Below are positions 53,251 through 64,000 of a stretch of 64,000 nt of DNA, in pieces. A program made the translations under genes and the position numbers. Within the stretch, counting starts at the first letter, position 1. Each line of letters begins with the position of its first letter. The notes under the pieces were generated by a model that was not told the DNA's origin, did not search any database, and was given only the letters and a program-made list of their open reading frames with translations. Origin of the DNA: Anaerolineae bacterium (lineage in GTDB: Bacteria; Chloroflexota; Anaerolineae; UBA1429). The stretch spans positions 416,001-480,000 of the forward strand of contig OY776562.1 of NCBI GenBank assembly GCA_963675785.1, written 5' to 3'.

Positions 53251-53278
53251 TTGACAGCCCTTGTTATTCCGCTATAAT
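53251..53278 (+). promoter_or_regulatory. Consensus sigma70 promoter for tRNA-Glu
   Basis: TTGACA-N16-TATAAT. Confidence 0.75.
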
Positions 53279-53300: not shown

Positions 53301-53374
53301 GCCGCATTCGTCTAGGGGTCTAGGACATCGCCCTCTCAAGGCGAAGATCGGGGGTTCGAATCCCCCATGCGGTA
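53301..53374 (+). tRNA. tRNA-Glu (anticodon CTC)
   Basis: Acceptor stem GCCGCAT/ATGCGGT, anticodon arm TCGCC-CTCTCAA-GGCGA, T-loop GTTCGAATC; followed by CCT, so full CCA is not encoded. Confidence 0.95.
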
Positions 53375-53400
53375 CCTTCTCTATTATAACTCGTGACGCG

Positions 53401-53433
53401 AACGAGGTGACTATTGTCGCCTCGTTTTTGTTT
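53401..53433 (+). terminator. Terminator after tRNA
   Basis: AACGAGGTGAC-TATT-GTCGCCTCGTT followed by a T-rich tail. Confidence 0.7.
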
Positions 53434-53480: not shown

Positions 53481-53509
53481 TTGACAGGCCAACAGATGCG
53501 TGGTATATT
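53481..53509 (+). promoter_or_regulatory. sigma70 promoter of the uronate operon
   Basis: TTGACA-N17-TATATT with an extended TG. Confidence 0.75.
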
Positions 53510-53514
53510 CGCCT

Positions 53515-53540
53515 CGTGACCGTTCACGTGAACGGTCACG
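53515..53540. promoter_or_regulatory. Perfect 26-bp palindrome, probably tandem LacI-type operators
   Basis: CGTGACCGTTCACGTGAACGGTCACG, between the -10 box and the LacI start codon; each half has a central CG. Confidence 0.75.
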
Positions 53541-53553
53541 GACAGGGTGGCGG

Positions 53554-54549
53554 ATGTCTCGCATTACGATACGTGATGTTGCGGAAAAAGCAGGGGTTTC
53601 ACGCCAGACAGTCTCCCGGGCGATTAACAATCAATCGGGGATTGACGTCAATACGCGCGCGCATGTACTTGCTGTTGCTCGCGAAATGGGCTATGCGCCC
53701 AGCAGGCTGGCCCGCGGCCTAAAAACAAACAGAACACGTACAATCGGATTGGTGGTGCCCGACATCGCCAATCCTTTTTTTGCAGAAATCGCCAGGGGCG
53801 CCTCTGAGGTGGCTCACGAACGCGAGTACGGCGTGCTCTTGTGTAATACCGACGAGCGTGCTGATCGCGAACTCGAAGTGTTGGCCATGCTGTCCGCCAA
53901 TCCTGTAGATGGGCTGGTGATGGTCAGTTCTCGTCTAAGCGAAGAGACGCTCGCCGAGAACCTGGAGCGTTGGAAGCCCGTGGTCCTCGTTAATCGCCAG
54001 TACCTGGCGGATCCCGAGGTGGTTTCTGTGATAGTGGATGATGAACAGGGTGCCTTTGAGGCTGTGCGTCACCTCCTTGATCGCGGACACCATGCTATTG
54101 GCTTCTTGGGAGGTACGCCCGGCTCACATTCTGGTCGAGCGCGTTTGGTTGGCTTTCAACGGGCCTTGCGTGCCTTTGGCATCAGCGATCGCCCCGAATG
54201 GCATAAACCTTGTGCGCCGACAGTGGCGGGAGGACGAGTTGCCGCGCAAGAGCTGCTCAGTGCGGTAGAAGTGACTGCCATTTTGGCATATAATGACCTT
54301 GTAGCCGTCGGTGTACTGCAGGCCTGTGCGGCAATGGGCTTGCGCGTGCCGAGCGATACGGCTGTTATGGGCTGGGACGATATTGACTATGCTGCATTTG
54401 TTTCCCCTGCCCTTACCACAATGCGTATGCCCAAATACATGATGGGCAAAGTGGCAATGTCGCTGCTCCTGGACTCTATTGCGACACCTGAGGCGATATC
54501 ACAACCAGTACATCTGCGTGCTGAATTGGTTGTGAGAAGCTCGACATAG
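53554..54549 (+). CDS. LacI-family transcriptional regulator
   Basis: TIRDVAEKAGVSRQTVSRAIN, NPFF, YNDLVA.G. Confidence 0.96.
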   Translation: MSRITIRDVAEKAGVSRQTVSRAINNQSGIDVNTRAHVLAVAREMGYAPSRLARGLKTNRTRTIGLVVPDIANPFFAEIARGASEVAHEREYGVLLCNTDERADRELEVLAMLSANPVDGLVMVSSRLSEETLAENLERWKPVVLVNRQYLADPEVVSVIVDDEQGAFEAVRHLLDRGHHAIGFLGGTPGSHSGRARLVGFQRALRAFGISDRPEWHKPCAPTVAGGRVAAQELLSAVEVTAILAYNDLVAVGVLQACAAMGLRVPSDTAVMGWDDIDYAAFVSPALTTMRMPKYMMGKVAMSLLLDSIATPEAISQPVHLRAELVVRSST

Positions 54550-54598
54550 CCAGGCGTCGCTTTTCTATTGTCGATGGGTTTTCGAGAGGAGATGGAAT

Positions 54599-56128
54599 AT
54601 GGCATCACTATTGGAGCTACTTGGCGACGAAACGGTTGACAGGCTGGGCGCTCTGTCTGGTCTCTCTGTGTATCCTCGCTCGATTTTCGAGCAGGGAGGC
54701 ACAGTGTTCTTTATGGGCAACAAAAATAACAGCCATGTGTTTGGCATGCTTCAGTCTAGCACGCTTACTCATGGCTTTGAGGTGAGCTTCAAAGAGGTCA
54801 AGCTGGGCAAAGTAGTGTTTTATCTCGGCCTGGGCCCGACCAATCACACCAATGCTTGCGCTTTGCGCCAGGCCTTGCCCTGGACTGCTTCAATTCGCGT
54901 GGGCGTACACAAGTCAGCCGGCCTGGGTGATCGTATGGGCAATGCCACGCCTGGTCATGTCCGCGCCATGCGCCACACCAAGGGCATCATCCCCGTGTTT
55001 GCTCAGCAGTCCATTCGCGAGATGGAGCGCACTGTGCGCACCTCGAATGAAGTGATGGATGCAGCCAGTTGGGGCGTATTCCAGGAAGGTTGGACGGCGG
55101 GTTTTGGTTCGGATGCTGATCACCTCAAGACCCCGGCAGATATCGACTATTGCGCCGATGCTGGCTTTATCATGTACACCTTTGATCCTCGCGATCATGT
55201 GGATAACGATGCCGAGACCGATGACGTCGAAACCCTCAAGAAAAAGTTCGTTGAACTCCCTTGGGATCGTCTGGAGACCACGGCGGATAGCACCTCCGCT
55301 GCCTATATCGACAAGAGCTGGGATCTGGAAGGTTTTACCTTTGGCTTGAACGAAGAGCAGGTTCTTCGTGCCGCTTGCAAGTACGGGCGCGCTCTGGCTC
55401 ACGTCAAAGAGCAGTACCGCTACCTTGTTGAAAAAATGGACGACCGTCCCTACGAGGTCGAGGTTTCAGTGGATGAGACCGATACCCCCACCCGTCCCGA
55501 AGAGCACCTCTATATCGTGATGGAACTCAAACGGCTAGGTGTTCAGTGGGTTAGCCTGGCGCCGCGCTTTATCGGGCGCTTTGAAAAGGGCGTCGATTAC
55601 ATCGGCGACCTGGGCGAGTTTGAAGCTGCCTTTGCCAAGCATGTGGCCATTGCCAAGGCCATGGGGCCCTACAAGATCAGTCTGCATTCTGGCTCGGACA
55701 AGTTCAGTGTGTATCCCATCGCGGCCAAGTTGGCAGGTGACTTGGTTCACCTCAAGACCGCTGGCACCAGCTATCTCGAATCGCTGCGTGCGGTTTCCCG
55801 CGTTGACCCTTCCCTCTTCCGTGAAATCTTGGCTTTTGCCATCGATAACTATGAAGAGGAAAAGGTTTCTTACCATGTGTCTGCCGTCCTGGACAAGATG
55901 ATCAACCCCGATACCGTGGCTGATGCGGATTTGCCCGCCGTGCTCGACCAGTTCGATACGCGGCAGGCTCTCCATGTTACCTTTGGCAAGGTACTGACCA
56001 TCAAGGACGATGAAGGCAACTATATCTTCAAGGATCGGCTCATGGGCGTTCTCTCGAGCAACGAAGAAACGTTGTACGATGCACTCGAGACGTACCTGGC
56101 CAAGCACGTCGTTCCGTTTAGCGATTAG
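54599..56128 (+). CDS. uxaE: Tagaturonate/fructuronate epimerase UxaE
   Basis: GLGDR.G.ATPGH, AQQSIRE..RT, DADHLK, EVSVDET, EKGVDY, SLHSGSDKF, KTAGTSYLE. Confidence 0.92.
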   Translation: MASLLELLGDETVDRLGALSGLSVYPRSIFEQGGTVFFMGNKNNSHVFGMLQSSTLTHGFEVSFKEVKLGKVVFYLGLGPTNHTNACALRQALPWTASIRVGVHKSAGLGDRMGNATPGHVRAMRHTKGIIPVFAQQSIREMERTVRTSNEVMDAASWGVFQEGWTAGFGSDADHLKTPADIDYCADAGFIMYTFDPRDHVDNDAETDDVETLKKKFVELPWDRLETTADSTSAAYIDKSWDLEGFTFGLNEEQVLRAACKYGRALAHVKEQYRYLVEKMDDRPYEVEVSVDETDTPTRPEEHLYIVMELKRLGVQWVSLAPRFIGRFEKGVDYIGDLGEFEAAFAKHVAIAKAMGPYKISLHSGSDKFSVYPIAAKLAGDLVHLKTAGTSYLESLRAVSRVDPSLFREILAFAIDNYEEEKVSYHVSAVLDKMINPDTVADADLPAVLDQFDTRQALHVTFGKVLTIKDDEGNYIFKDRLMGVLSSNEETLYDALETYLAKHVVPFSD

Positions 56129-56142
56129 TGGAGGACACAACA

Positions 56143-56976
56143 ATGGATCAGAACTACAGCAAAAGTCTTTTTGATGTTGAAGGCAAAGTCGCAGTAATCA
56201 CGGGCGGCGGCGGAATACTTTGCGGTACCATGGCTCGCGGTTTGGCCAAGGCTGGCGTCAAAGTCGCTATTCTCGATATCAACAAGGATGCAGCGCAGGC
56301 TGTTGCCGATGAAATCGTCGCCGAAGGTGGCGAGGCCATCGGTGTGTATGCCAACGTGTTGGACAAAGATGCGCTGGCAGTATCTGCCAAAGAAGTTTTG
56401 GATGCTTACGGCACCATCGACATCCTGATTAACGGCGCTGGCGGCAACAAGCGTCAAGCCACCACCTCGGCTGAAATGCCTTTCTTTGACCTTCCGCAGG
56501 ACGCCTTCCAGTGGGTGTTCAACCTCAACTTTATCGGCACGCTTCTGCCGACCCAGGTTTTTGGCAAGATACTTGCTGACAAGGACGAGGGCGTCATCAT
56601 CAACATCGCCTCGGTGAACGCTTTTACACCGCTGACCAACATCCCGGCTTACTCGGCAGCCAAGTCGGCTGTGCGTAACTTTACCGAATGGTTTGCCACG
56701 CACGTCGCTCAGAATTATTCCAAGAATATTCGCGTGAATGGTATTGCCCCCGGTTTCTTCCTGACTGAGCAGAACCGTTTCCTCTTGACGGATGAAAAGA
56801 CTGGCGAGATTACTCCGCGCGGCAATTCTATCATTGACCATACCCCCATGGGGCGGTGGGGCGATCCTTCCGAGTTGATGGGCACTTTGATCTGGCTCAT
56901 CTCGCCAGGCGCTCAGTTTGTTACCGGTATTACAGTACTGGTGGATGGCGGCTTTGTCGCTTTCTCCGGTATCTAG
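56143..56976 (+). CDS. uxuB: SDR oxidoreductase, fructuronate reductase / D-mannonate dehydrogenase (UxuB-II/YjmF-like)
   Basis: TGGGGILC, NGAGGN, YSAAK, IAPGFF..EQN, HTPMGR; adjacent to uxaE. Confidence 0.8.
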   Translation: MDQNYSKSLFDVEGKVAVITGGGGILCGTMARGLAKAGVKVAILDINKDAAQAVADEIVAEGGEAIGVYANVLDKDALAVSAKEVLDAYGTIDILINGAGGNKRQATTSAEMPFFDLPQDAFQWVFNLNFIGTLLPTQVFGKILADKDEGVIINIASVNAFTPLTNIPAYSAAKSAVRNFTEWFATHVAQNYSKNIRVNGIAPGFFLTEQNRFLLTDEKTGEITPRGNSIIDHTPMGRWGDPSELMGTLIWLISPGAQFVTGITVLVDGGFVAFSGI

Positions 56977-56983
56977 TTTCTAA

Positions 56984-57028
56984 TTCAGTGTCACATCTGG
57001 CGTACTAAAAGCCAGATGTGACACTGAA
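56984..57028. other. Perfect 18-bp intercistronic inverted repeat
   Basis: TTCAGTGTCACATCTGGC-N9-GCCAGATGTGACACTGAA, no U tail. Confidence 0.8.
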
Positions 57029-57078
57029 CTATCGCTTTCGGACCATCGTTTCGAGTATAGGATTTGGAGGATAGCAGC

Positions 57079-57975
57079 GTGAACGTACCCGAAGTGGCCC
57101 GCCCGCTCGTCGAAATGAAGCGCGACTTTGACTTTTTCGTTGGCATCGACTCGGACGGTTGTGCATTCGATACCATGGAGATCAAGCACAAAGAGTGCTT
57201 TACCCCCAATATCATCAAATACTGGGGACTCCAGGGCGTCAGCAAGTATGCCCGTGAAGCATCCGAGTTTGTCAACCTTTACAGCCAGTGGCGTGGTGCC
57301 AACCGTTGGCCTGCGCTGATCAAGGTATTCGATCTGTTGCGCGCCCGCCCCGAAGTTCAGCATCGCGGCGTGGCCATCCCCGAGGCGAACAAGATTCGCG
57401 AGTTCATCGCTTCGGATCTACCCAAGAGCAACGACTCTTTGGCCCAGCTGGTCGAAGAGACCCACGATCCCGAGCTTGAGCGCGCCTTGGCCTGGAGCCT
57501 GGCGGTCAACGAATCCATCGCTGACATGGTTCATGGCGTGGCGCCGTATCCTTTTGTGCGCGAGAGCCTGGTAAAAATCATTGCCCATGCTGACGCCATC
57601 GTTGTATCTCAGACGCCGGTTGAAGCTTTGGTACGCGAGTGGGCCGAGCACGGCATCGATCAGTATGTCAAAATCATTGCTGGCCAGGAGCAGGGCACCA
57701 AGACAGAGCACTTGCGTTTGGCCGCTGGCGACGGCAAGTACGCCGATGATCACAAACTCATGATCGGCGATGCCCCCGGCGATATGAAAGCGGCTCAAGC
57801 CAATAATGCCCTGTTCTTCCCCATCGATCCGGGCCATGAAGAAGAGAGTTGGCAGCGCTTTTACGAAGAGGCCTTTGATCGCTTTATCGCGGGCACCTAT
57901 GCCGGCGAATACGAGGCCAAGCTGATTGCGGCATTTAATGCTGTGCTGCCTTCAACCCCTCCCTGGGAAAAGTAG
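57079..57975 (+). CDS. HAD-superfamily hydrolase/phosphotransferase
   Basis: Motif I DSDG, motif II VSQT, motif III K, motif IV MIGDAPGD; GTG start after GGAGG. Confidence 0.85.
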   Translation: MNVPEVARPLVEMKRDFDFFVGIDSDGCAFDTMEIKHKECFTPNIIKYWGLQGVSKYAREASEFVNLYSQWRGANRWPALIKVFDLLRARPEVQHRGVAIPEANKIREFIASDLPKSNDSLAQLVEETHDPELERALAWSLAVNESIADMVHGVAPYPFVRESLVKIIAHADAIVVSQTPVEALVREWAEHGIDQYVKIIAGQEQGTKTEHLRLAAGDGKYADDHKLMIGDAPGDMKAAQANNALFFPIDPGHEEESWQRFYEEAFDRFIAGTYAGEYEAKLIAAFNAVLPSTPPWEK

Positions 57976-57981
57976 GCAAAA

Positions 57982-59241
57982 ATGGCTATCGGAACAGGTT
58001 ATACAGACCGTTTCTTGAGCGAGGACGAGGCGCGCGGCATCTTTGCTGAGGGCCTGGATACCCTTTCGCTCAAGGGCAAAAAAGTGCTGGTTATCATCCC
58101 GGATAGCACCCGCAGCGCGCCGCTGCCCATGTGCTTCCGTCAGCTCGTCGATTTGATGAGCGGCACCGTCGGCCAGCTCGATTTCATGATCGCGCTGGGT
58201 ACACACCGTGGCATGACCGATGAGCAGATCAACCATCTGCTGGGCATTACCGCGGAAGAGCGTGCAGCCAAGTATTCCCACGTCAACGTCTATAACCATG
58301 ACTGGGAGAACGACGTTATCAAAATCGGCACCATCCCCAGTTCCCGCATCCGCGAGCTTTCTGATGGCTTGATGGATCAGGATTTGGATGTCACCGTCAA
58401 CAAGAATCTGTTCGGTTATGATCAGCTCATTATCTGCGGACCAGTATTCCCGCACGAGGTGGTTGGCTTTTCTGGTGGATTCAAGTACTTGTTCCCCGGT
58501 GTCAGCGGTGCTGATGTGACCAACTTTACCCATTGGTTGGGTGCGGTCATCACCCTGGTCAAGATCATCGGTACCGAGCGCACCCCGGTACGTGCGGTCA
58601 TCGAAGAAGCTGCCAGCCTGGTAACGGCTCGTGTGCCGGTTGCCGCTTTCTGCATGGTAGTCAAGGGCCACGACGATCTTTCCGGCCTCTATTTCGGTGA
58701 TCCCATCTATGCCCAGTCAGCGGCGGCGCAGCTTTCCTCCCAGTTGCATGTCATCTGGTGCGACCATCCCTACAAGACGGTGCTTTCGGTAATGCCCGAA
58801 CTGTACGATGATATTTGGACCGCTGCCAAGGGTGGTTACAAGGTCGAATGTGCTGTGGCTGATGGTGGCACAGTCATCATCTATGCGCCGCATATCGACG
58901 AGGTTTCCTACACACATGGCGCGCTGCTGGATCGCATTGGCTACCATGTGCGCGACTTTTTCCTCCAGCAGGAAGAAAAGTTCGCGGATGTGCCGGGCGG
59001 TATCAAGGCGCACTCAACGCATCTCAAGGGTGCTGGCACCTATGTGGATGGCGTAGAGACGCCGCGCATTAACGTCTATCTGGCCACGGGTATTTCCAAA
59101 GAGCGCTGCGGGCAAATCAACCTAGGTTACATCGATCCGGCGACGATCAACGTAGAAGAGTGGATGCAGCGCGATGATCCTGATCTGCTGGTGATCCCTC
59201 GCGCCGGTGAAATGCTTTACAAGCTAAATAGTCAGAGATAA
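57982..59241 (+). CDS. LarA-family nickel-pincer 2-hydroxyacid epimerase (putative mannonate/gluconate 2-epimerase, GntE-like)
   Basis: IPDSTR, ALGTHR, PHEVVGFSGGFK, THW, AAKG retain the LarA catalytic residues. Confidence 0.85.
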   Translation: MAIGTGYTDRFLSEDEARGIFAEGLDTLSLKGKKVLVIIPDSTRSAPLPMCFRQLVDLMSGTVGQLDFMIALGTHRGMTDEQINHLLGITAEERAAKYSHVNVYNHDWENDVIKIGTIPSSRIRELSDGLMDQDLDVTVNKNLFGYDQLIICGPVFPHEVVGFSGGFKYLFPGVSGADVTNFTHWLGAVITLVKIIGTERTPVRAVIEEAASLVTARVPVAAFCMVVKGHDDLSGLYFGDPIYAQSAAAQLSSQLHVIWCDHPYKTVLSVMPELYDDIWTAAKGGYKVECAVADGGTVIIYAPHIDEVSYTHGALLDRIGYHVRDFFLQQEEKFADVPGGIKAHSTHLKGAGTYVDGVETPRINVYLATGISKERCGQINLGYIDPATINVEEWMQRDDPDLLVIPRAGEMLYKLNSQR

Positions 59242-59253
59242 GGAGAGTCTACA

Positions 59254-60663
59254 ATGGCCAAGTGTAGTATGGGGCTAATAGGTCTGGCCGTTATGGGCCA
59301 GAACCTGGTGCTTAACTTTGAACGTAACGGTGAGTCTATGGCAGTTTATAACCGTACCGCTGCCCGCACCGAAGAATTCATGGCCAACAAGGCCCAGGGC
59401 AAGAACATCACTGCCTGCTATTCACTGCAGGAACTGGTGGATGCTCTCGCTAGCCCGCGCAAGATCATGCTCATGGTCCAGGCTGGCGACCCCGTCGATC
59501 AGACCATTGCGGCGCTTAGGCCGCTCCTGGACAAGGGCGATCTGATCATTGATGGCGGCAACTCGTTCTTCAAAGACACCGAGCGTCGCGCTGTCGATCT
59601 CGAAAAGGATGGCATTCGCTACTTTGGCACCGGTGTCTCCGGTGGCGAAGAGGGAGCCCTTTGGGGCCCGGCCATGATGCCCGGCGGCCAAAAGGATGCC
59701 TGGGATATGGTCAAGAGCACCTTTGAGGCTGCCTCGGCCAAGGCCGAAGGCGAGGCTTGCGTGGCTTATCTGGGTCCGCGCGGCGCTGGCCACTATGTAA
59801 AAATGGTGCACAACGGCATTGAGTATGGCGATATGCAGCTCATCGCTGAGGCCTATGATGCCCTGCATCGTCTGTTGGGCCTCTCTGCCGCCGAGCTTCA
59901 CGAGGTCTTTGCCGATTGGTATGAGGGCGAACTCAACAGCTACCTCATCGAAATCACCCGCGACATCTTTGCCAAAGTGGACGACGAGACCGGCCTGCCG
60001 CTGGTTGATGTCATTCTTGACGAGGCCAAGCAAAAGGGTACCGGTAAGTGGACTTCGCAGAGCGCTTTGGATCTGGGTGCTCCGACCCAGACCATCAATG
60101 CTGCTGTCGAATCCCGCATCATCTCGGCCTACAAGGACGAGCGCGTTGCCGCTTCCAAGGAGCTCACGGGCCCCGAGGTTGTTTACAATGGCGATCGCCA
60201 GGCCTTTATTGATGACGTTCGTGATGCACTCTATGCTGCCAAAATCTGCTCGTATGCCCAGGGCATGGCCTTGCTCAAGGCCGCTTCTGAAGAATATGAC
60301 TATGACCTCAACTATGGCGAGATCGCCAAGATTTGGCGTGGCGGCTGCATCATTCGCGCTCGCTTCTTGAACGACATCACCGCCGCTTATCAGCGCAATC
60401 CGGGCCTGGTCAATCTCATGCTCGATCCTTTCTTCAAGAAGGAAATCCTGGCACGGCAGGGCGCTTTGCGCCGCGTCGTGGTGGCCTGTGTGAATGCGGG
60501 CGTGCCTTGCTTGGCCTTTAGCGCCTCACTGTCCTACTTTGATGCCTACCGCACTGACCGTTTGCCTGCCAACCTGACCCAGGCGCAGCGTGACTACTTT
60601 GGTGCGCATACCTATCGCCGTACCGACAAGGACGGCGTCTTCCACACCGAGTGGATTGACTAG
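59254..60663 (+). CDS. gnd: 6-phosphogluconate dehydrogenase, decarboxylating (long, NADP-type)
   Basis: GLAVMG, YNRT, VSGGEEGA, KMVHNGIEY, QKGTGKWT, QAQRDYFGAH. Confidence 0.97.
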   Translation: MAKCSMGLIGLAVMGQNLVLNFERNGESMAVYNRTAARTEEFMANKAQGKNITACYSLQELVDALASPRKIMLMVQAGDPVDQTIAALRPLLDKGDLIIDGGNSFFKDTERRAVDLEKDGIRYFGTGVSGGEEGALWGPAMMPGGQKDAWDMVKSTFEAASAKAEGEACVAYLGPRGAGHYVKMVHNGIEYGDMQLIAEAYDALHRLLGLSAAELHEVFADWYEGELNSYLIEITRDIFAKVDDETGLPLVDVILDEAKQKGTGKWTSQSALDLGAPTQTINAAVESRIISAYKDERVAASKELTGPEVVYNGDRQAFIDDVRDALYAAKICSYAQGMALLKAASEEYDYDLNYGEIAKIWRGGCIIRARFLNDITAAYQRNPGLVNLMLDPFFKKEILARQGALRRVVVACVNAGVPCLAFSASLSYFDAYRTDRLPANLTQAQRDYFGAHTYRRTDKDGVFHTEWID

Positions 60664-60676
60664 TTTGAATCGTTTG

Positions 60677-60729
60677 GGCGCGGGCCTTGGATTTGCAAAA
60701 CTTGTTCTGCAAATCCAAGGGCCTGCGCC
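60677..60729. other. Intercistronic inverted repeat
   Basis: CCTTGGATTTGCA-N10-TGCAAATCCAAGG core, extended by GC pairs. Confidence 0.75.
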
Positions 60730-60748
60730 TGTCTCTGAGGAGCGAAGG

Positions 60749-62035
60749 ATGAGAAACAAAAACCTCGTCGTCGCACAATCTGGCGGTCCGACGCCAGTCA
60801 TCAATGCATCGTTGCGTGGTGTCATTGAGACTTGTCTCGATATGCCTGATGTGTTCGACAAAATCTATGCCGGTTACCACGGCATTGAGGGGGTACTCCG
60901 TGAAGAGTTGCTGGACCTTTCGGCCCAGTCTCGTGATGAGATCGCCCTGCTCAGTGTGACGCCGTCGGCGGGTTCTATTGGCTCTTGCCGTTACAAGCTC
61001 AAGGCTCATCAGACAGAGGATTTCAAGCGTGTTGTGGATGTGCTCAAGGCCCACAACGTTGGCTATTTCCTCTATAACGGCGGCAATGACTCGATGGACA
61101 CCGCCAACAAGATTTCCCAATTGGCCCACGAACAGGGCCTCGACTTGGTGGCGGTCGGTATTCCCAAGACCATCGACAATGACATTGGAGATAGCGAGTT
61201 CAAGCTCATCGACCACACGCCGGGTTACGGCTCTGTGGCGCGCTATTGGTCCGGTATGGTTCAGGGTGCCCTGGAAGAGAATCGTGGTTCCAGCCCTGCA
61301 GATCCCGTGCTGGTGTTGCAGGCTATGGGCCGTCTCATCGGTTACATCCCGGCGGCTGCCCGTCTGGCCGATCCTGATCGCCAGGAGCCTCTTCTCATCT
61401 ATACGGCTGAATCCGGCTTGACCGTTGAAGTGATCTATGAGCAGATCAACGATATGCTCAAGGCGCATGGCCATTGCGTGGTTGTGGTCAGCGAAGGCCT
61501 CAAGCTGGGCGAATTGGGCGAAGTGCGCGATTCATTCGGCCATGTCCAGTTCTCCTCCAGCAAGACGACTGTCGCCTCGCAGTTGGTCAACTATCTTAAC
61601 GAGCGTGGCTTGTGCGTTCCCGGTGCTGCTCGCGGCAATGTCTCGGGTACGCATCAGCGCCACGATATCGCCTATGCCTCTACAGTAGACCTCGCCGAGG
61701 CCTATGCTGTGGGCCAAAAGGCAGCCATATTGGCTGCTGAGGGCGAATCGGGCTATATGTCCACCATCTTGCGTGAGCCGGGGCCCATCTACTCGGTGCG
61801 CTATGACAAGGTGCCTTTGGAGTTGGTTGCCAACTCGGAGCGGACCTTCCCGCAAGAATGGCTGACGGAAGCTCGCAACGATGTGACGGACGATTTCTTG
61901 GCCTATGCTCGCCCGCTCGTCGGCGAGGACTGGCCGAGCGTGCCCCTGGTCGATGGCCGCATGCGCTTTACACGCTTTGAGCCTATCTATGCTGATCAGG
62001 TTCTGCCGGCCTACGAACCGCAGGAAAAGCGCTAG
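60749..62035 (+). CDS. pfp: PPi-dependent phosphofructokinase-family protein
   Basis: QSGGPTPVIN, GGNDS (Asp indicates PPi type), PKTIDND, MGR, VSEG. Confidence 0.85.
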   Translation: MRNKNLVVAQSGGPTPVINASLRGVIETCLDMPDVFDKIYAGYHGIEGVLREELLDLSAQSRDEIALLSVTPSAGSIGSCRYKLKAHQTEDFKRVVDVLKAHNVGYFLYNGGNDSMDTANKISQLAHEQGLDLVAVGIPKTIDNDIGDSEFKLIDHTPGYGSVARYWSGMVQGALEENRGSSPADPVLVLQAMGRLIGYIPAAARLADPDRQEPLLIYTAESGLTVEVIYEQINDMLKAHGHCVVVVSEGLKLGELGEVRDSFGHVQFSSSKTTVASQLVNYLNERGLCVPGAARGNVSGTHQRHDIAYASTVDLAEAYAVGQKAAILAAEGESGYMSTILREPGPIYSVRYDKVPLELVANSERTFPQEWLTEARNDVTDDFLAYARPLVGEDWPSVPLVDGRMRFTRFEPIYADQVLPAYEPQEKR

Positions 62036-62056
62036 TTCCCAGCGTTATGGATTACC

Positions 62057-62088
62057 AGGACACCGCACATGCGTGCGGTGTCCTTTTT
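62057..62088 (+). terminator. Intrinsic terminator
   Basis: AGGACACCGCAC-ATGC-GTGCGGTGTCCT-TTTT. Confidence 0.85.
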
Positions 62089-62147
62089 CATTTGCATTCT
62101 CCCACGTGGCGCATTAGCCTGTGCTCACCTTGGCAAAGGAGGGTAGG

Positions 62148-63407
62148 ATGTCTGCGATCTATGATCATGTCATGGCTCATCCACTGTTTTGCTATCACGA
62201 TCATCAAAAGAGCTTTACCGAGTTCGAGGCAGAGCGCTCTACTTATGATTATCGCTCATTGCTGGGTTATGCTGTTCATGATCTGGTGGCTGCCGCTGGC
62301 GGACGCTACGATGCCCAGAGCGTTTTGGAACATGTGCCCGAATTGTGGCCATATGTGGCCCATACCGGCTATGGCAGGGCAGTGCAGATGGCCACACGCG
62401 AAATACTTGATGTGGATTTCGATCCTGTCAATGGTGAGGCCTTGACCGAGGCATTGCAGGTTTATCTGGGGGAGCGCCCGCCCCAAGAGATTTATGAGGA
62501 TTTGATCACGAACAAGGCCGGCCACGCCTACACCATCAACGATGGCACCCTCTTTTGGGGGAGCCCTCCGGTGTTTACGTCCTTTGACTATTTGCCTGGC
62601 TTTTTCCACACTTTTCGTATGGATGGCTTACTGGCCATCAACTCAGACGGACCAATTTCCCGCCTGGAAGAATTGACCGGGCAGACCGTCGACAGTCTGG
62701 ATGCGCTTGGCAGGGCGCTCGGTGATTTTGTGGGCCGCTTTGACAACACAGGGCACCTGGCGGCGATCAAAATTGGTTTTGCCTATCACCGCAATATCAC
62801 AGTGGGTGAACCGCTGAGGTCGCAGGCAGAGGCAATTTTTACGCGCATCCGCCGAGGTGGCGAGCCCCTTACAGAGGCTGAGGCTCGCCCCTTGGCCGAT
62901 TACATGGTGCATACACTGCTCAAATGTGCCAATGATCTCAATCTGCCCGTGCAGATCCACACCGGTTTTCTCAGCGGCAGCTGGCAGCCGCTGGATGACT
63001 CACGTGCCATGTATTTGCTGCCCCTGTTCAACCGTTATCGCAACGTGCGCTTTGATGTCTTTCATGCTTCTTGGCCCTGGACGAGTGAATTGGCAGCAAT
63101 TGCCAAGAGCTATCCCAATGTGTGGGTGGATATGTGCTGGGCTTGGTCTATGAACCCCACTGACTGCGAGCACGCTTTTGCCGTTTATCTGGATGCGGTA
63201 CCACTCAACAAGATCTTTGCCTATGGCGCCGATACACGCTATCCCTGGTGCTGTGTTGGTTATGCCAGGCAGGCTCGTTTGGGTATTGCTCGCACGTTGG
63301 AGACGCAGATAAAAAGAGGCAGACTATCGCAGACCAGCGCGTGCGAAATCGCCTCTGCCATCATGCTGGAGAACGGCATACAGTTTTACAGATTAGCAAG
63401 ATCATAG
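62148..63407 (+). CDS. Amidohydrolase-superfamily protein (distant uronate-isomerase-like)
   Basis: HPLFCYHDH metal motif, VQIHTG, DMCW, YGAD, NG..FY. Confidence 0.75.
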   Translation: MSAIYDHVMAHPLFCYHDHQKSFTEFEAERSTYDYRSLLGYAVHDLVAAAGGRYDAQSVLEHVPELWPYVAHTGYGRAVQMATREILDVDFDPVNGEALTEALQVYLGERPPQEIYEDLITNKAGHAYTINDGTLFWGSPPVFTSFDYLPGFFHTFRMDGLLAINSDGPISRLEELTGQTVDSLDALGRALGDFVGRFDNTGHLAAIKIGFAYHRNITVGEPLRSQAEAIFTRIRRGGEPLTEAEARPLADYMVHTLLKCANDLNLPVQIHTGFLSGSWQPLDDSRAMYLLPLFNRYRNVRFDVFHASWPWTSELAAIAKSYPNVWVDMCWAWSMNPTDCEHAFAVYLDAVPLNKIFAYGADTRYPWCCVGYARQARLGIARTLETQIKRGRLSQTSACEIASAIMLENGIQFYRLARS

Positions 63408-63479
63408 ATACCCCGGGGTTGTATAACACTGATCCGCGTGGTATCCTTTCCTGTGAGATTCAAGTACAAAGGAAAAGAT

Positions 63480-64000
63480 ATGCCTGCAATCAAAATAAGA
63501 GAAAATGTATACTGGATCGGTGTGAACGACCGTACCACCGATCTTTTTGAGGGTGTCTGGCCCATTACCCAGGAAGGTGTTTCCTACAACAGCTACCTGG
63601 TTTTGGGCGAAAAAAAGGTCATGATTGACCTGGCCAAGAGCACGCACAGCAGTTCGCTGTTAGAGCAGATATCGGGCGTTATCGATCCGAGTGAGCTCGA
63701 TTATGTAGTTATCAACCATATGGAGCCTGACCATACCGGTGCACTCAAGCTTCTCAAACAAGTTGCCCCCCAGGTAGAAATAGTGGCAACAGCCAAGGCT
63801 GTGCCCATGATCGAGGCCTTTTGCGGCATCACCGAAGGTGTGCGGGTGGTGGGTAATGGTGATGAGCTTGATCTGGGCGATCGCAAACTGCGTTTTTATC
63901 CCATACCGTTTGTGCATTGGCCTGAAACCATGGTGACCTATGATGAGTCTTCGCGCATCCTGTTCACCTGCGATGCCTTTGGTGGCTATGGTGCGTTGCG
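63480..64000 (+). CDS. fprA: Flavodiiron protein FprA (A-type flavoprotein), partial
   Basis: Own translation: MPAIKIRENVYWIGVND...FEG.WP...GVSYNSYL...NHMEPDHTG...HWPETM...LFTCDAFG; runs off the window edge. Confidence 0.9.
   Translation, partial: MPAIKIRENVYWIGVNDRTTDLFEGVWPITQEGVSYNSYLVLGEKKVMIDLAKSTHSSSLLEQISGVIDPSELDYVVINHMEPDHTGALKLLKQVAPQVEIVATAKAVPMIEAFCGITEGVRVVGNGDELDLGDRKLRFYPIPFVHWPETMVTYDESSRILFTCDAFGGYGAL

Follow-up and report, generated by a model that had tools for sequence, protein, structure and literature searches.

A putative hexuronate operon of an Anaerolineae bacterium in which a divergent phosphofructokinase paralogue stands where other lineages have known sugar-acid kinases, together with a conserved HAD-superfamily protein

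How is a hexuronate brought to ribulose-5-phosphate by a gene cluster that contains no recognisable kinase for the sugar acid? The question was raised by an operon of an Anaerolineae bacterium (GenBank assembly GCA_963675785.1, contig OY776562.1), found in a stretch of 64,000 nucleotides (bases 416001-480000 of the contig) that is called the window here. The genome is a single contig (C1) of 3.22 Mb with a G+C content of 53.6%. Eight co-oriented open reading frames (ORFs) on the + strand were found to fill positions 53500-63407 of the window, and all of them matched named families of Pfam and NCBIfam. An earlier note on this DNA had described the same run, LacI-uxaE-SDR-HAD-LarA-gnd-Pfk-amidohydrolase, and the coordinates, strand and family matches confirmed it. 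No uxuA, kdgK, eda, FGGY or GntK gene was found within the cluster by the Pfam and NCBIfam scans, and the lack of a recognisable kinase in the cluster, also described in that note, was thus upheld. We read the operon as LacI-repressed hexuronate catabolism by the GntE route, in which a divergent phosphofructokinase (PFK) paralogue, called PFKl here, is most likely the kinase and a haloacid dehalogenase (HAD) protein, called HADl, most likely a phosphatase; taken as a whole, this reading is given about an even chance. The genes of the operon, with positions in the window, were as follows.

53554-54549, + strand: LacI-family regulator, 331 aa (ORF opens at 53500; PF00356, PF13377)
54599-56128, + strand: UxaE tagaturonate/fructuronate epimerase (PF16257, 517 bits, profile positions 1-472 of 475)
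56128-56976, + strand: short-chain dehydrogenase/reductase (SDR) of the D-mannonate oxidoreductase (fructuronate reductase) subfamily (NF006132, 369.7 bits, cut-off 281)
57079-57975, + strand: HADl, C1-capped HAD-superfamily protein, 298 aa (alternative start 57064; PF13419, 26.6 bits)
57982-59241, + strand: LarA homologue of the GntE type (PF09861; E-value 3e-62 to 4NAR)
59254-60663, + strand: Gnd, decarboxylating 6-phosphogluconate dehydrogenase (NF006765, 707 bits, cut-off 413)
60746-62035, + strand: PFKl, divergent PFK-family paralogue, 429 aa (ORF opens at 60590; NF010675, 370 bits, cut-off 273)
62148-63407, + strand: Amidohydro_2 protein, 419 aa (alternative start 62121; PF04909, 46 bits)

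The route from uronate through 6-phosphogluconate to ribulose-5-phosphate very likely operates here. In the first step the amidohydrolase, whose predicted fold resembles that of uronate isomerases, would make tagaturonate or fructuronate. By family assignment, UxaE would then epimerise tagaturonate to fructuronate and the SDR would reduce fructuronate to D-mannonate. The LarA homologue would invert C2 and a kinase would phosphorylate C6, in either order, to give 6-phosphogluconate, and the nickel-pincer cofactor of the LarA homologue would be supplied by LarB, LarC and LarE encoded elsewhere in the genome. In the last step Gnd would release ribulose-5-phosphate, CO2 and NADPH.

The LarA homologue is the predicted nickel-pincer-dependent hexonate (or 6-phosphohexonate) 2-epimerase of the GntE type. 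In its match to GntE2 of Thermotoga maritima (PDB 4NAR), the DxxR, GTHR, PHE(V), K, H and WTAxK residues were aligned, which are those named for cofactor binding and catalysis in the passages of Desguin et al. (PMC7583248) cited here. On NF052594, the sole curated hexonate-epimerase model, the protein scored 192 bits, under the cut-off of 500, and it is not a member of a curated equivalog. The larC, larB and larE genes were found together at C1:1013441-1015367, where LarB scored 253 bits (cut-off 175), LarE 276 bits (cut-off 150) and LarC 270 and 193 bits on PF01969; the genome can therefore make the nickel-pincer cofactor.

The hexuronate cluster of T. maritima reportedly has the order gnd-uxaR-uxaE-uxaD-gntE-gntK. 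The two clusters share UxaE, a fructuronate reductase, a GntE-type nickel epimerase and Gnd within one regulated cluster, and the same flow from mannonate through gluconate and 6-phosphogluconate to ribulose-5-phosphate is proposed for both. The operon differs from that of T. maritima in having PFKl and HADl in place of an FGGY gluconokinase, a divergent amidohydrolase in place of a canonical UxaC, and a regulator of the LacI type, whereas that of T. maritima is presumably of the GntR type. The Thermotoga route was proposed by Rodionova et al. (2012), as cited in passages of PMC6978723 and PMC7583248, and the epimerase activity of GntE was assayed in the latter work, in which GntE2 is LarAH20 (PDB 4NAR). 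In extracts of Lactobacillus suebicus, mannonate was phosphorylated and the 6-phosphomannonate was epimerised to 6-phosphogluconate, which fed Gnd (Valk et al., 2020, PMC6978723). There, according to the passages cited, the kinase acts first, as a mannonate kinase using ATP, and the genes for the kinase and the epimerase were not identified. That route is alike in carrying galacturonate via UxaC, UxaE and UxuB to mannonate and on to 6-phosphogluconate and Gnd, redox-neutral to ribulose-5-phosphate; it differs in the ATP kinase preceding the epimerase, whereas in the operon either order is possible and the donor is suggested by motifs, and nothing here points to phosphoketolase as the path that follows ribulose-5-phosphate. 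The chain of reactions put forward earlier as a candidate new pathway is supported by the families, the synteny and the lar genes, but it is not new, because it was proposed for Thermotoga, GntE was assayed and flux was shown in L. suebicus. The pathway is a known one; the form that it takes in the operon is new and widespread, and differs in the kinase slot and the conserved HAD partner.

Related loci were collected by a synteny scan with HADl using one genome per species. Of at least 600 stretches that were matched, at least 589 encoded a relative, and from these the best 80 were retained; the search patterns were estimated to match about 1500 stretches in the genome collection. The genes of the 80 loci were labelled by phmmer with the window proteins, and the counts are lower bounds, many loci ending at contig ends. 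Gnd was found in 50 loci, followed by the SDR in 46 (some of them weak), the epimerase in 43, PFKl in 29 and UxaE in 27; in 39 loci the HAD gene had Gnd no more than 3.5 kb away. The arrangement is not due to chance, because Gnd, the epimerase, PFKl and UxaE recur among these loci. PfkB was found in four and FGGY in one. A GHMP (galactokinase-like) kinase and a sugar-1-phosphate nucleotidyltransferase each accompanied the cassette in seven (L077 and six others between L030 and L109).

A classical lower pathway of mannonate dehydratase, 2-keto-3-deoxygluconate kinase and 2-keto-3-deoxy-6-phosphogluconate aldolase, encoded elsewhere, might degrade the uronates instead, with gnd, the PFK gene and the HAD gene as housekeeping neighbours. 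The absence of uxuA, kdgK, eda and gntK, as claimed earlier, was true of the cluster and, for canonical GntK, of the whole genome (no match to TIGR01313), but a KdgK-like gene next to an Eda gene (319 bits, cut-off 275) was found at C1:2894151-2895895, and two divergent UxuA-family ORFs above the Pfam cut-off were found elsewhere. These genes fit a classical pathway, and the housekeeping reading of gnd is in line with Gnd being the sole copy in the genome-wide profile search, with Zwf also present, and with the 14 of the 80 loci that had HAD and Gnd genes without the epimerase, including loci of Acidobacteriota, Verrucomicrobiota, Planctomycetota and Armatimonadota. However, the UxuA-family ORFs scored 93 and 120 bits against the 191 set for mannonate dehydratase and sit in unrelated gene contexts. 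No copy of the putative operator of the operon was found at the KdgK-Eda locus in the palindrome search, nor upstream of any other gene of the genome, so that no gntK, uxuA, kdgK or eda gene appeared to be co-regulated; transporters and any distant kinase were likewise not linked to the operon by this search. Here the epimerase gene is flanked by the HAD gene and gnd, and most related loci likewise show it linked to gnd. Among 20 HADl genomes of other phyla, outside the core group, that lacked an epimerase in the locus, 13 had a good orthologue elsewhere, three had a distant one only and four had none. The classical alternative is therefore regarded as highly improbable, and the GntE route is followed below.

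The kinase slot was examined in a survey of 151 genomes of the class, the present one included, in which PFKl was counted at E-values of 1e-100 or below and overlaps were counted by hand. HADl was found in 43 genomes, the epimerase in 69 and PFKl in 36. The epimerase was present in 42 of the 43 HADl genomes; the PFKl genomes contained the epimerase in 34 and HADl in 33 of 36 cases, the exceptions being 73-88% complete. In 27 genomes the epimerase was present but neither PFKl nor HADl. From these, 24 epimerase loci were taken as a comparison set (three were left out for a fragment match or a contig edge), and kinases were labelled by phmmer with the FGGY and PfkB proteins of our genome and by Pfam for unlabelled genes. 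FGGY was found in 10 of the 24 loci (once as a fragment of 127 aa), PfkB in four and a P-loop shikimate-kinase-like gene, lying between the epimerase and Gnd, in one, whereas nine had no recognised kinase. FGGY and PfkB were absent from all 25 loci in which the epimerase was accompanied by PFKl. Thus PFKl stands where other lineages have one of three sugar-acid kinase families (FGGY, PfkB, P-loop). As to whether the HAD or the PFK gene replaces gntK at such loci, a check proposed earlier, synteny speaks for PFKl, but HADl accompanies kinases. In the same way, the proposal of a non-canonical phosphorylation by the one or the other fits PFKl, by complementary gene content, and is unlikely for the HAD protein in view of its fold and neighbours.

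The genome has five PFK-family genes, among which PFKl was the most divergent. PFKl scored 121 bits on PF00365, matched the pyrophosphate-dependent PFK (PPi-PFK) structure 3K2Q at an E-value of 3e-72 and also resembled 3HNO. It was 40% identical to the other NF010675 paralogue of the genome, which scored higher (500 bits). Its donor-site motifs were GGND, with Asn in the third and Asp in the fourth place, and PKTIDND. PFKl resembles the short PPi-PFKs (NF010675; 3K2Q, 3HNO) in its full PFK domain, the Asp at the last GGDG position and the PKTIDND motif; it differs from the others in a 5-residue insert before DHTPGYGS and in TH/TD-QRH instead of Y/H-x-QR, and from the short PPi-PFKs in being nearly confined to genomes with a GntE-type epimerase. 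In the passages cited from a 2025 review (PMC12203962), GGDD and PKTIDXD are the marks of PPi-PFKs, and the Lys motif alone is no proof of PPi use. If PFKl is the kinase, PPi is somewhat favoured as its phosphate donor by these motifs, and the earlier description of the route as ATP-sparing stands or falls with them. In the proposed reaction the carboxylate of the sugar acid would occupy the place of the 6-phosphate of fructose-6-phosphate (F6P). Whether PFKl is the sugar-acid kinase of the operon is a matter on which we are evenly poised.

Several points weigh against this role. We know of no enzyme of the PFK (PfkA) family that phosphorylates a sugar acid. PFKl retains most of the residues that we take to bind F6P in Escherichia coli PfkA: the site that presumably corresponds to Arg162 was Pro in both PFKl and the paralogue, those taken as Arg243 and Arg252 were kept, and that taken as His249 was Thr versus Tyr. 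Reading the substrate from the active-site residues was non-discriminating, as the alignment gave no clear split from the F6P-type paralogue. F6P and sedoheptulose-7-phosphate (S7P) are named as the sole substrates of the PFK family, and gluconate does not occur, in the text cited from the 2025 review (PMC12203962). In a literature text search on mannonate or fructuronate kinase, 6-phosphomannonate and PPi-dependent gluconate phosphorylation, the L. suebicus paper was the sole match. It is common for the kinase to be encoded elsewhere, because nine of the 24 comparison loci had no kinase. Two complete or nearly complete genomes of relatives, G075 and G116, had UxaE, SDR, HADl, epimerase and Gnd genes and no PFKl genome-wide at the threshold used. 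The class genomes are, moreover, related and not independent samples, so the counts overstate independence. In our genome 10 FGGY proteins above the Pfam cut-off and 11 PfkB matches were found. None of the 10 reached the TIGR01314 (gntK_FGGY) cut-off of 648.55, the best score of 361 bits being that of the xylulokinase XylB, and six were without an assigned substrate. Lastly, transaldolase (PF00923, TAL_FSA) gave no match in the single-contig genome, which gives PFKl another plausible job.

That job would be the one of an ordinary PPi-dependent F6P/S7P kinase in a sedoheptulose-bisphosphate bypass replacing transaldolase, with a distant FGGY or PfkB kinase phosphorylating the hexonate; the non-oxidative pentose phosphate pathway may indeed run via sedoheptulose bisphosphate here. 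PFKl lies above the NF010675 cut-off and resembles 3K2Q and 3HNO, and any of the six unassigned FGGY kinases could serve the hexonate. PPi-PFKs replace transaldolase in clostridia and Entamoeba, according to passages of PMC7029132 and PMC12203962. Across the class, PFKl was found in 9 of the 16 genomes without a TAL_FSA match and in 27 of the 135 with one. However, 27 of the 36 PFKl genomes thus have a TAL_FSA match, which weakens PFKl as a simple transaldolase substitute. PFKl is also nearly confined to epimerase genomes (34 of 36, against 69 of 151 overall), known sugar-acid kinases take its place where it is absent and were never beside it in the loci counted, and the better-scoring paralogue could do the general PFK job. 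Gene context speaks for a substrate of PFKl other than F6P. This alternative is considered rather unlikely. A bolder variant of our own reading, in which PFKl and HADl form an undescribed PPi-driven module of sugar-acid phosphorylation with HADl as the obligate partner (mutase, proofreader or channel to Gnd), appears quite unlikely. If this were true, PFKl would be the first sugar-acid kinase in the PFK family, acting with PPi on mannonate, gluconate or fructuronate, and uronates would reach ribulose-5-phosphate without ATP in many anaerobic Chloroflexota and members of other phyla.

HADl, the conserved partner of the proposed kinase, contained HAD motifs I-IV (DSDGC, VSQTP, K and GDAPGD). In an alignment of 35 sequences, 53-77% identical across phyla, D24, D26, S177/T179, K208 and G230-D231...D235 were invariant, as were many basic residues of the cap. 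Its structural model, with a predicted local distance difference test (pLDDT) score of 96, had a Rossmann-like core with a C1 cap. The nearest folds were HAD IA enzymes, namely beta-phosphoglucomutase, phosphoglycolate phosphatase and CbbY, at E-values of about 3e-5 and template modelling (TM) scores of about 0.45-0.5. A sequence search against solved structures found no relative, and a search of the ESM Atlas returned solely clusters named 'HAD family'. The HADl gene was found directly after PfkB in three loci (L041, L043, L065) and after FGGY in one (L102); it occurred with FGGY, as a direct neighbour, and with PfkB but without PFKl in two genomes (G007, G040), and without a locus kinase in G075 and G116. 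HADl accompanies rather than replaces kinases, because it adjoins kinases of three families. A protein of 803 aa (P0126, from a cluster of 14) contained a full HADl (58% identity), a linker of about 44 residues and a full Gnd (60% identity), and looks like a natural HADl-Gnd fusion. In a search for longer proteins, about 35 protein clusters joined a Cof-type HAD to a HADl-type domain. On a set of metagenome contigs (L163-L181), HADl relatives were fused or adjacent to a Cof-type HAD beside an ABC importer made up of a solute-binding protein, a TOBE-type ATPase and a fused double permease, and the system is possibly one of uptake and dephosphorylation of a phosphorylated sugar. The same contigs also encoded a long LacI-like protein to which a solute-binding domain is added.

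Its fold, its kinase and Gnd neighbours, the Gnd fusion and the Cof-type relatives lead us to read HADl as a phosphatase that belongs with Gnd and the kinase step. As a phosphoryl-transfer enzyme it goes with Gnd and with whichever kinase the locus has, and it is probably a phosphatase rather than a kinase or mutase. It would remove a phosphorylated by-product, an inhibitor of Gnd or an excess of an intermediate; this part of the proposal is a guess, which counts against it. A parallel is given by mammalian PGP and yeast Pho13, HAD phosphatases that destroy 4-phosphoerythronate, an inhibitor of Gnd, according to passages of PMC6449344 and PMC6904873. HADl resembles them as a HAD-fold phosphoryl-transfer enzyme linked to 6-phosphogluconate dehydrogenase, with phosphoglycolate phosphatases among its nearest folds, whereas its link to Gnd is one of gene order and a single fusion. 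HADl might instead deliver phosphate, as a phosphotransferase acting through an aspartyl-phosphate (with PPi or a phosphorylated donor) or as a mutase completing the work of PFKl. Such a role would fit the invariance of both catalytic aspartates and the Mg site in the 35 sequences, the existence of the full-length Gnd fusion, the kinase-free loci of G075 and G116, the presence of HADl in 33 of the 36 PFKl genomes and beta-phosphoglucomutase among the nearest folds. However, HADl adjoins PfkB, FGGY or PFKl, there are 27 epimerase genomes without it, and the relatives joined to a Cof-type phosphatase beside an importer point to hydrolysis. To our knowledge, no HAD enzyme is a net kinase. The delivery of phosphate by HADl is accordingly viewed as very doubtful, and the phosphatase reading is retained.

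Two further ideas on HADl were rejected. HADl as a substitute for 6-phosphogluconolactonase (Pgl) was given up, as the two co-occur: Pgl was above the cut-off in 12 of the 43 HADl genomes and in 49 of the 108 others, and in four genomes of one genus (G001, G050, G093, G131) Pgl and HADl shared a contig, at a distance of 1.8 to about 11 kb from each other. In our own genome the best Pgl match scored 66.7 bits against a cut-off of 124.45. A second protein, P0169, appeared to be a PFK-HAD fusion, with 68% identity to PFKl over 176 residues, an Arg/Pro-rich out-of-frame stretch and then pieces of HADl; it was found to be a frameshifted gene call over two adjacent genes, which shows adjacency only and calls for care in drawing inferences from fusions among metagenome proteins.

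Some other arrangements were found around relatives of these genes. In G116 and G075 (loci L145 and L146) the cluster was followed by an uncharacterised protein of 531-552 aa and a class II fructose-bisphosphate aldolase, and a second copy of the epimerase sat beside a PfkB kinase and a GH2 glycosidase. In G007 and G040 (L148, L149) a GlmU-like transferase and GH3 glycosidases flanked duplicated HAD genes. In our genome, the other short PPi-type PFK (500 bits) lies in a cluster at C1:2590342-2595957 with one of the unassigned FGGY kinases, a phosphoglucomutase/phosphomannomutase-like protein, a class II aldolase-like protein and a 1-phosphofructokinase-like PfkB, which together are a candidate separate sugar pathway.

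The entry of the route depends on the amidohydrolase, which is the probable uronate isomerase as judged from its structural model (pLDDT 89.9, built with 21 relatives). The top match in Foldseek was 4I6V, an uncharacterised amidohydrolase, followed by the uronate isomerases 1J5S, 2Q01, BH0493 (2PNK, 3HKA) and 3IAC with TM scores of 0.65-0.79; for 1J5S, 2Q01 and BH0493 the E-values ranged from 1e-13 to 1e-15 and the TM scores from 0.68 to 0.78. Once the isomerases and two uncharacterised hydrolases are set aside, the next fold had an E-value of 3e-5 and a TM score of 0.36, which left a gap from 5e-9 to 3e-5. The metal-site residues H17 and H19 (HxH), K208, H271, H306 and D362 were invariant in the 21 relatives. 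The protein is thus like UxaC TM0064 (1J5S) and BH0493 in fold and metal-site residues, but unlike them in sequence family: it did not match PF02614, it scored 23.6 bits on NF002794 against a cut-off of 387, and it shared 14-16% identity with the solved uronate isomerases. Its assignment is weakened by its presence in only one of the 80 related loci and by its position behind a terminator-like hairpin. Canonical UxaC was present in 12 of the 80 loci, and none was found in our genome by the genome-wide profile search, where the best match scored 62.6 bits. This match was a protein of 485 aa at C1:530568-532025 (- strand), about 50 kb from the operon, which spans the whole glucuronate isomerase profile (cut-off 387) and is a second candidate for a divergent uronate isomerase.

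The signals that bear on the transcription of the operon were as follows.

53481-53509, + strand: sigma-70-type promoter-like site, TTGACA-17 nt-TATATT, 11 of 12 matches, TG before the -10
53516-53539, just downstream of the -10: perfect 24-bp palindrome GTGACCGTTCACGTGAACGGTCAC, putative LacI operator
56981-57031, between the SDR and HAD genes: hairpin with 21-nt arms, 95% complementary, 9-nt loop, no T-run
60682-60723, between gnd and the PFK gene: hairpin with 20-nt arms, 90% complementary, 2-nt loop, no T-run
62057-62084, + strand, after the PFK gene: terminator-like hairpin with a 12-bp stem, then TTTTCATTT

Position 53481, given as the start of the run in the earlier note, is that of the -35 hexamer of this strong promoter-like site. 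The 24-bp palindrome is probably the operator of the LacI-family repressor of the operon. It was unique in the genome, and its nearest relative, with one mismatch in the 16-nt core, lay inside an ORF of 1049 aa; the regulon of the repressor would thus appear to be local. The start of the repressor was set at the ATG at 53554, because the promoter-like site and the palindrome overlap the upstream part of the ORF (53500-53539); in the long ORF, the alignments to the LacI-family profiles begin at residue 19-23. The two long intergenic hairpins were each unique in the genome and could be processing signals, stability signals or binding sites. Terminator-like sites in the region numbered 11 against 9.3 in shuffles, which is not above expectation, and the site at 62057-62084 has to be read accordingly as weak evidence for a terminator.

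A tRNA-Glu (CTC) gene was found at 53301-53376 (+ strand), directly upstream of the operon promoter, with its own consensus promoter (12 of 12) at 53251-53278 and a hairpin terminator at 53400-53427. Directly after the amidohydrolase gene, a flavorubredoxin-like gene (63438-64000, + strand) ran off the window; it contained an ODP/metallo-beta-lactamase domain and was of the anaerobic nitric oxide reductase type (130 bits). Elsewhere the window contained housekeeping genes unrelated to the operon, such as gyrA, secA and the genes of a V-type ATPase, of a Na+-pumping decarboxylase and of ribosomal protein S2.

In anoxic sediments and digesters, which are rich in Anaerolineae, pectin and other polymers of plants and algae provide uronic acids as a large source of carbon. 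The kinase of the GntE route has so far been identified genetically by context alone, and in L. suebicus not at all. Few members of the cassette are as well conserved as HADl, which is without an assigned function. If PFKl is the kinase, the textbook PFK family would extend beyond F6P and S7P, and if it uses PPi, one ATP would be saved per uronate, which matters for fermenters.

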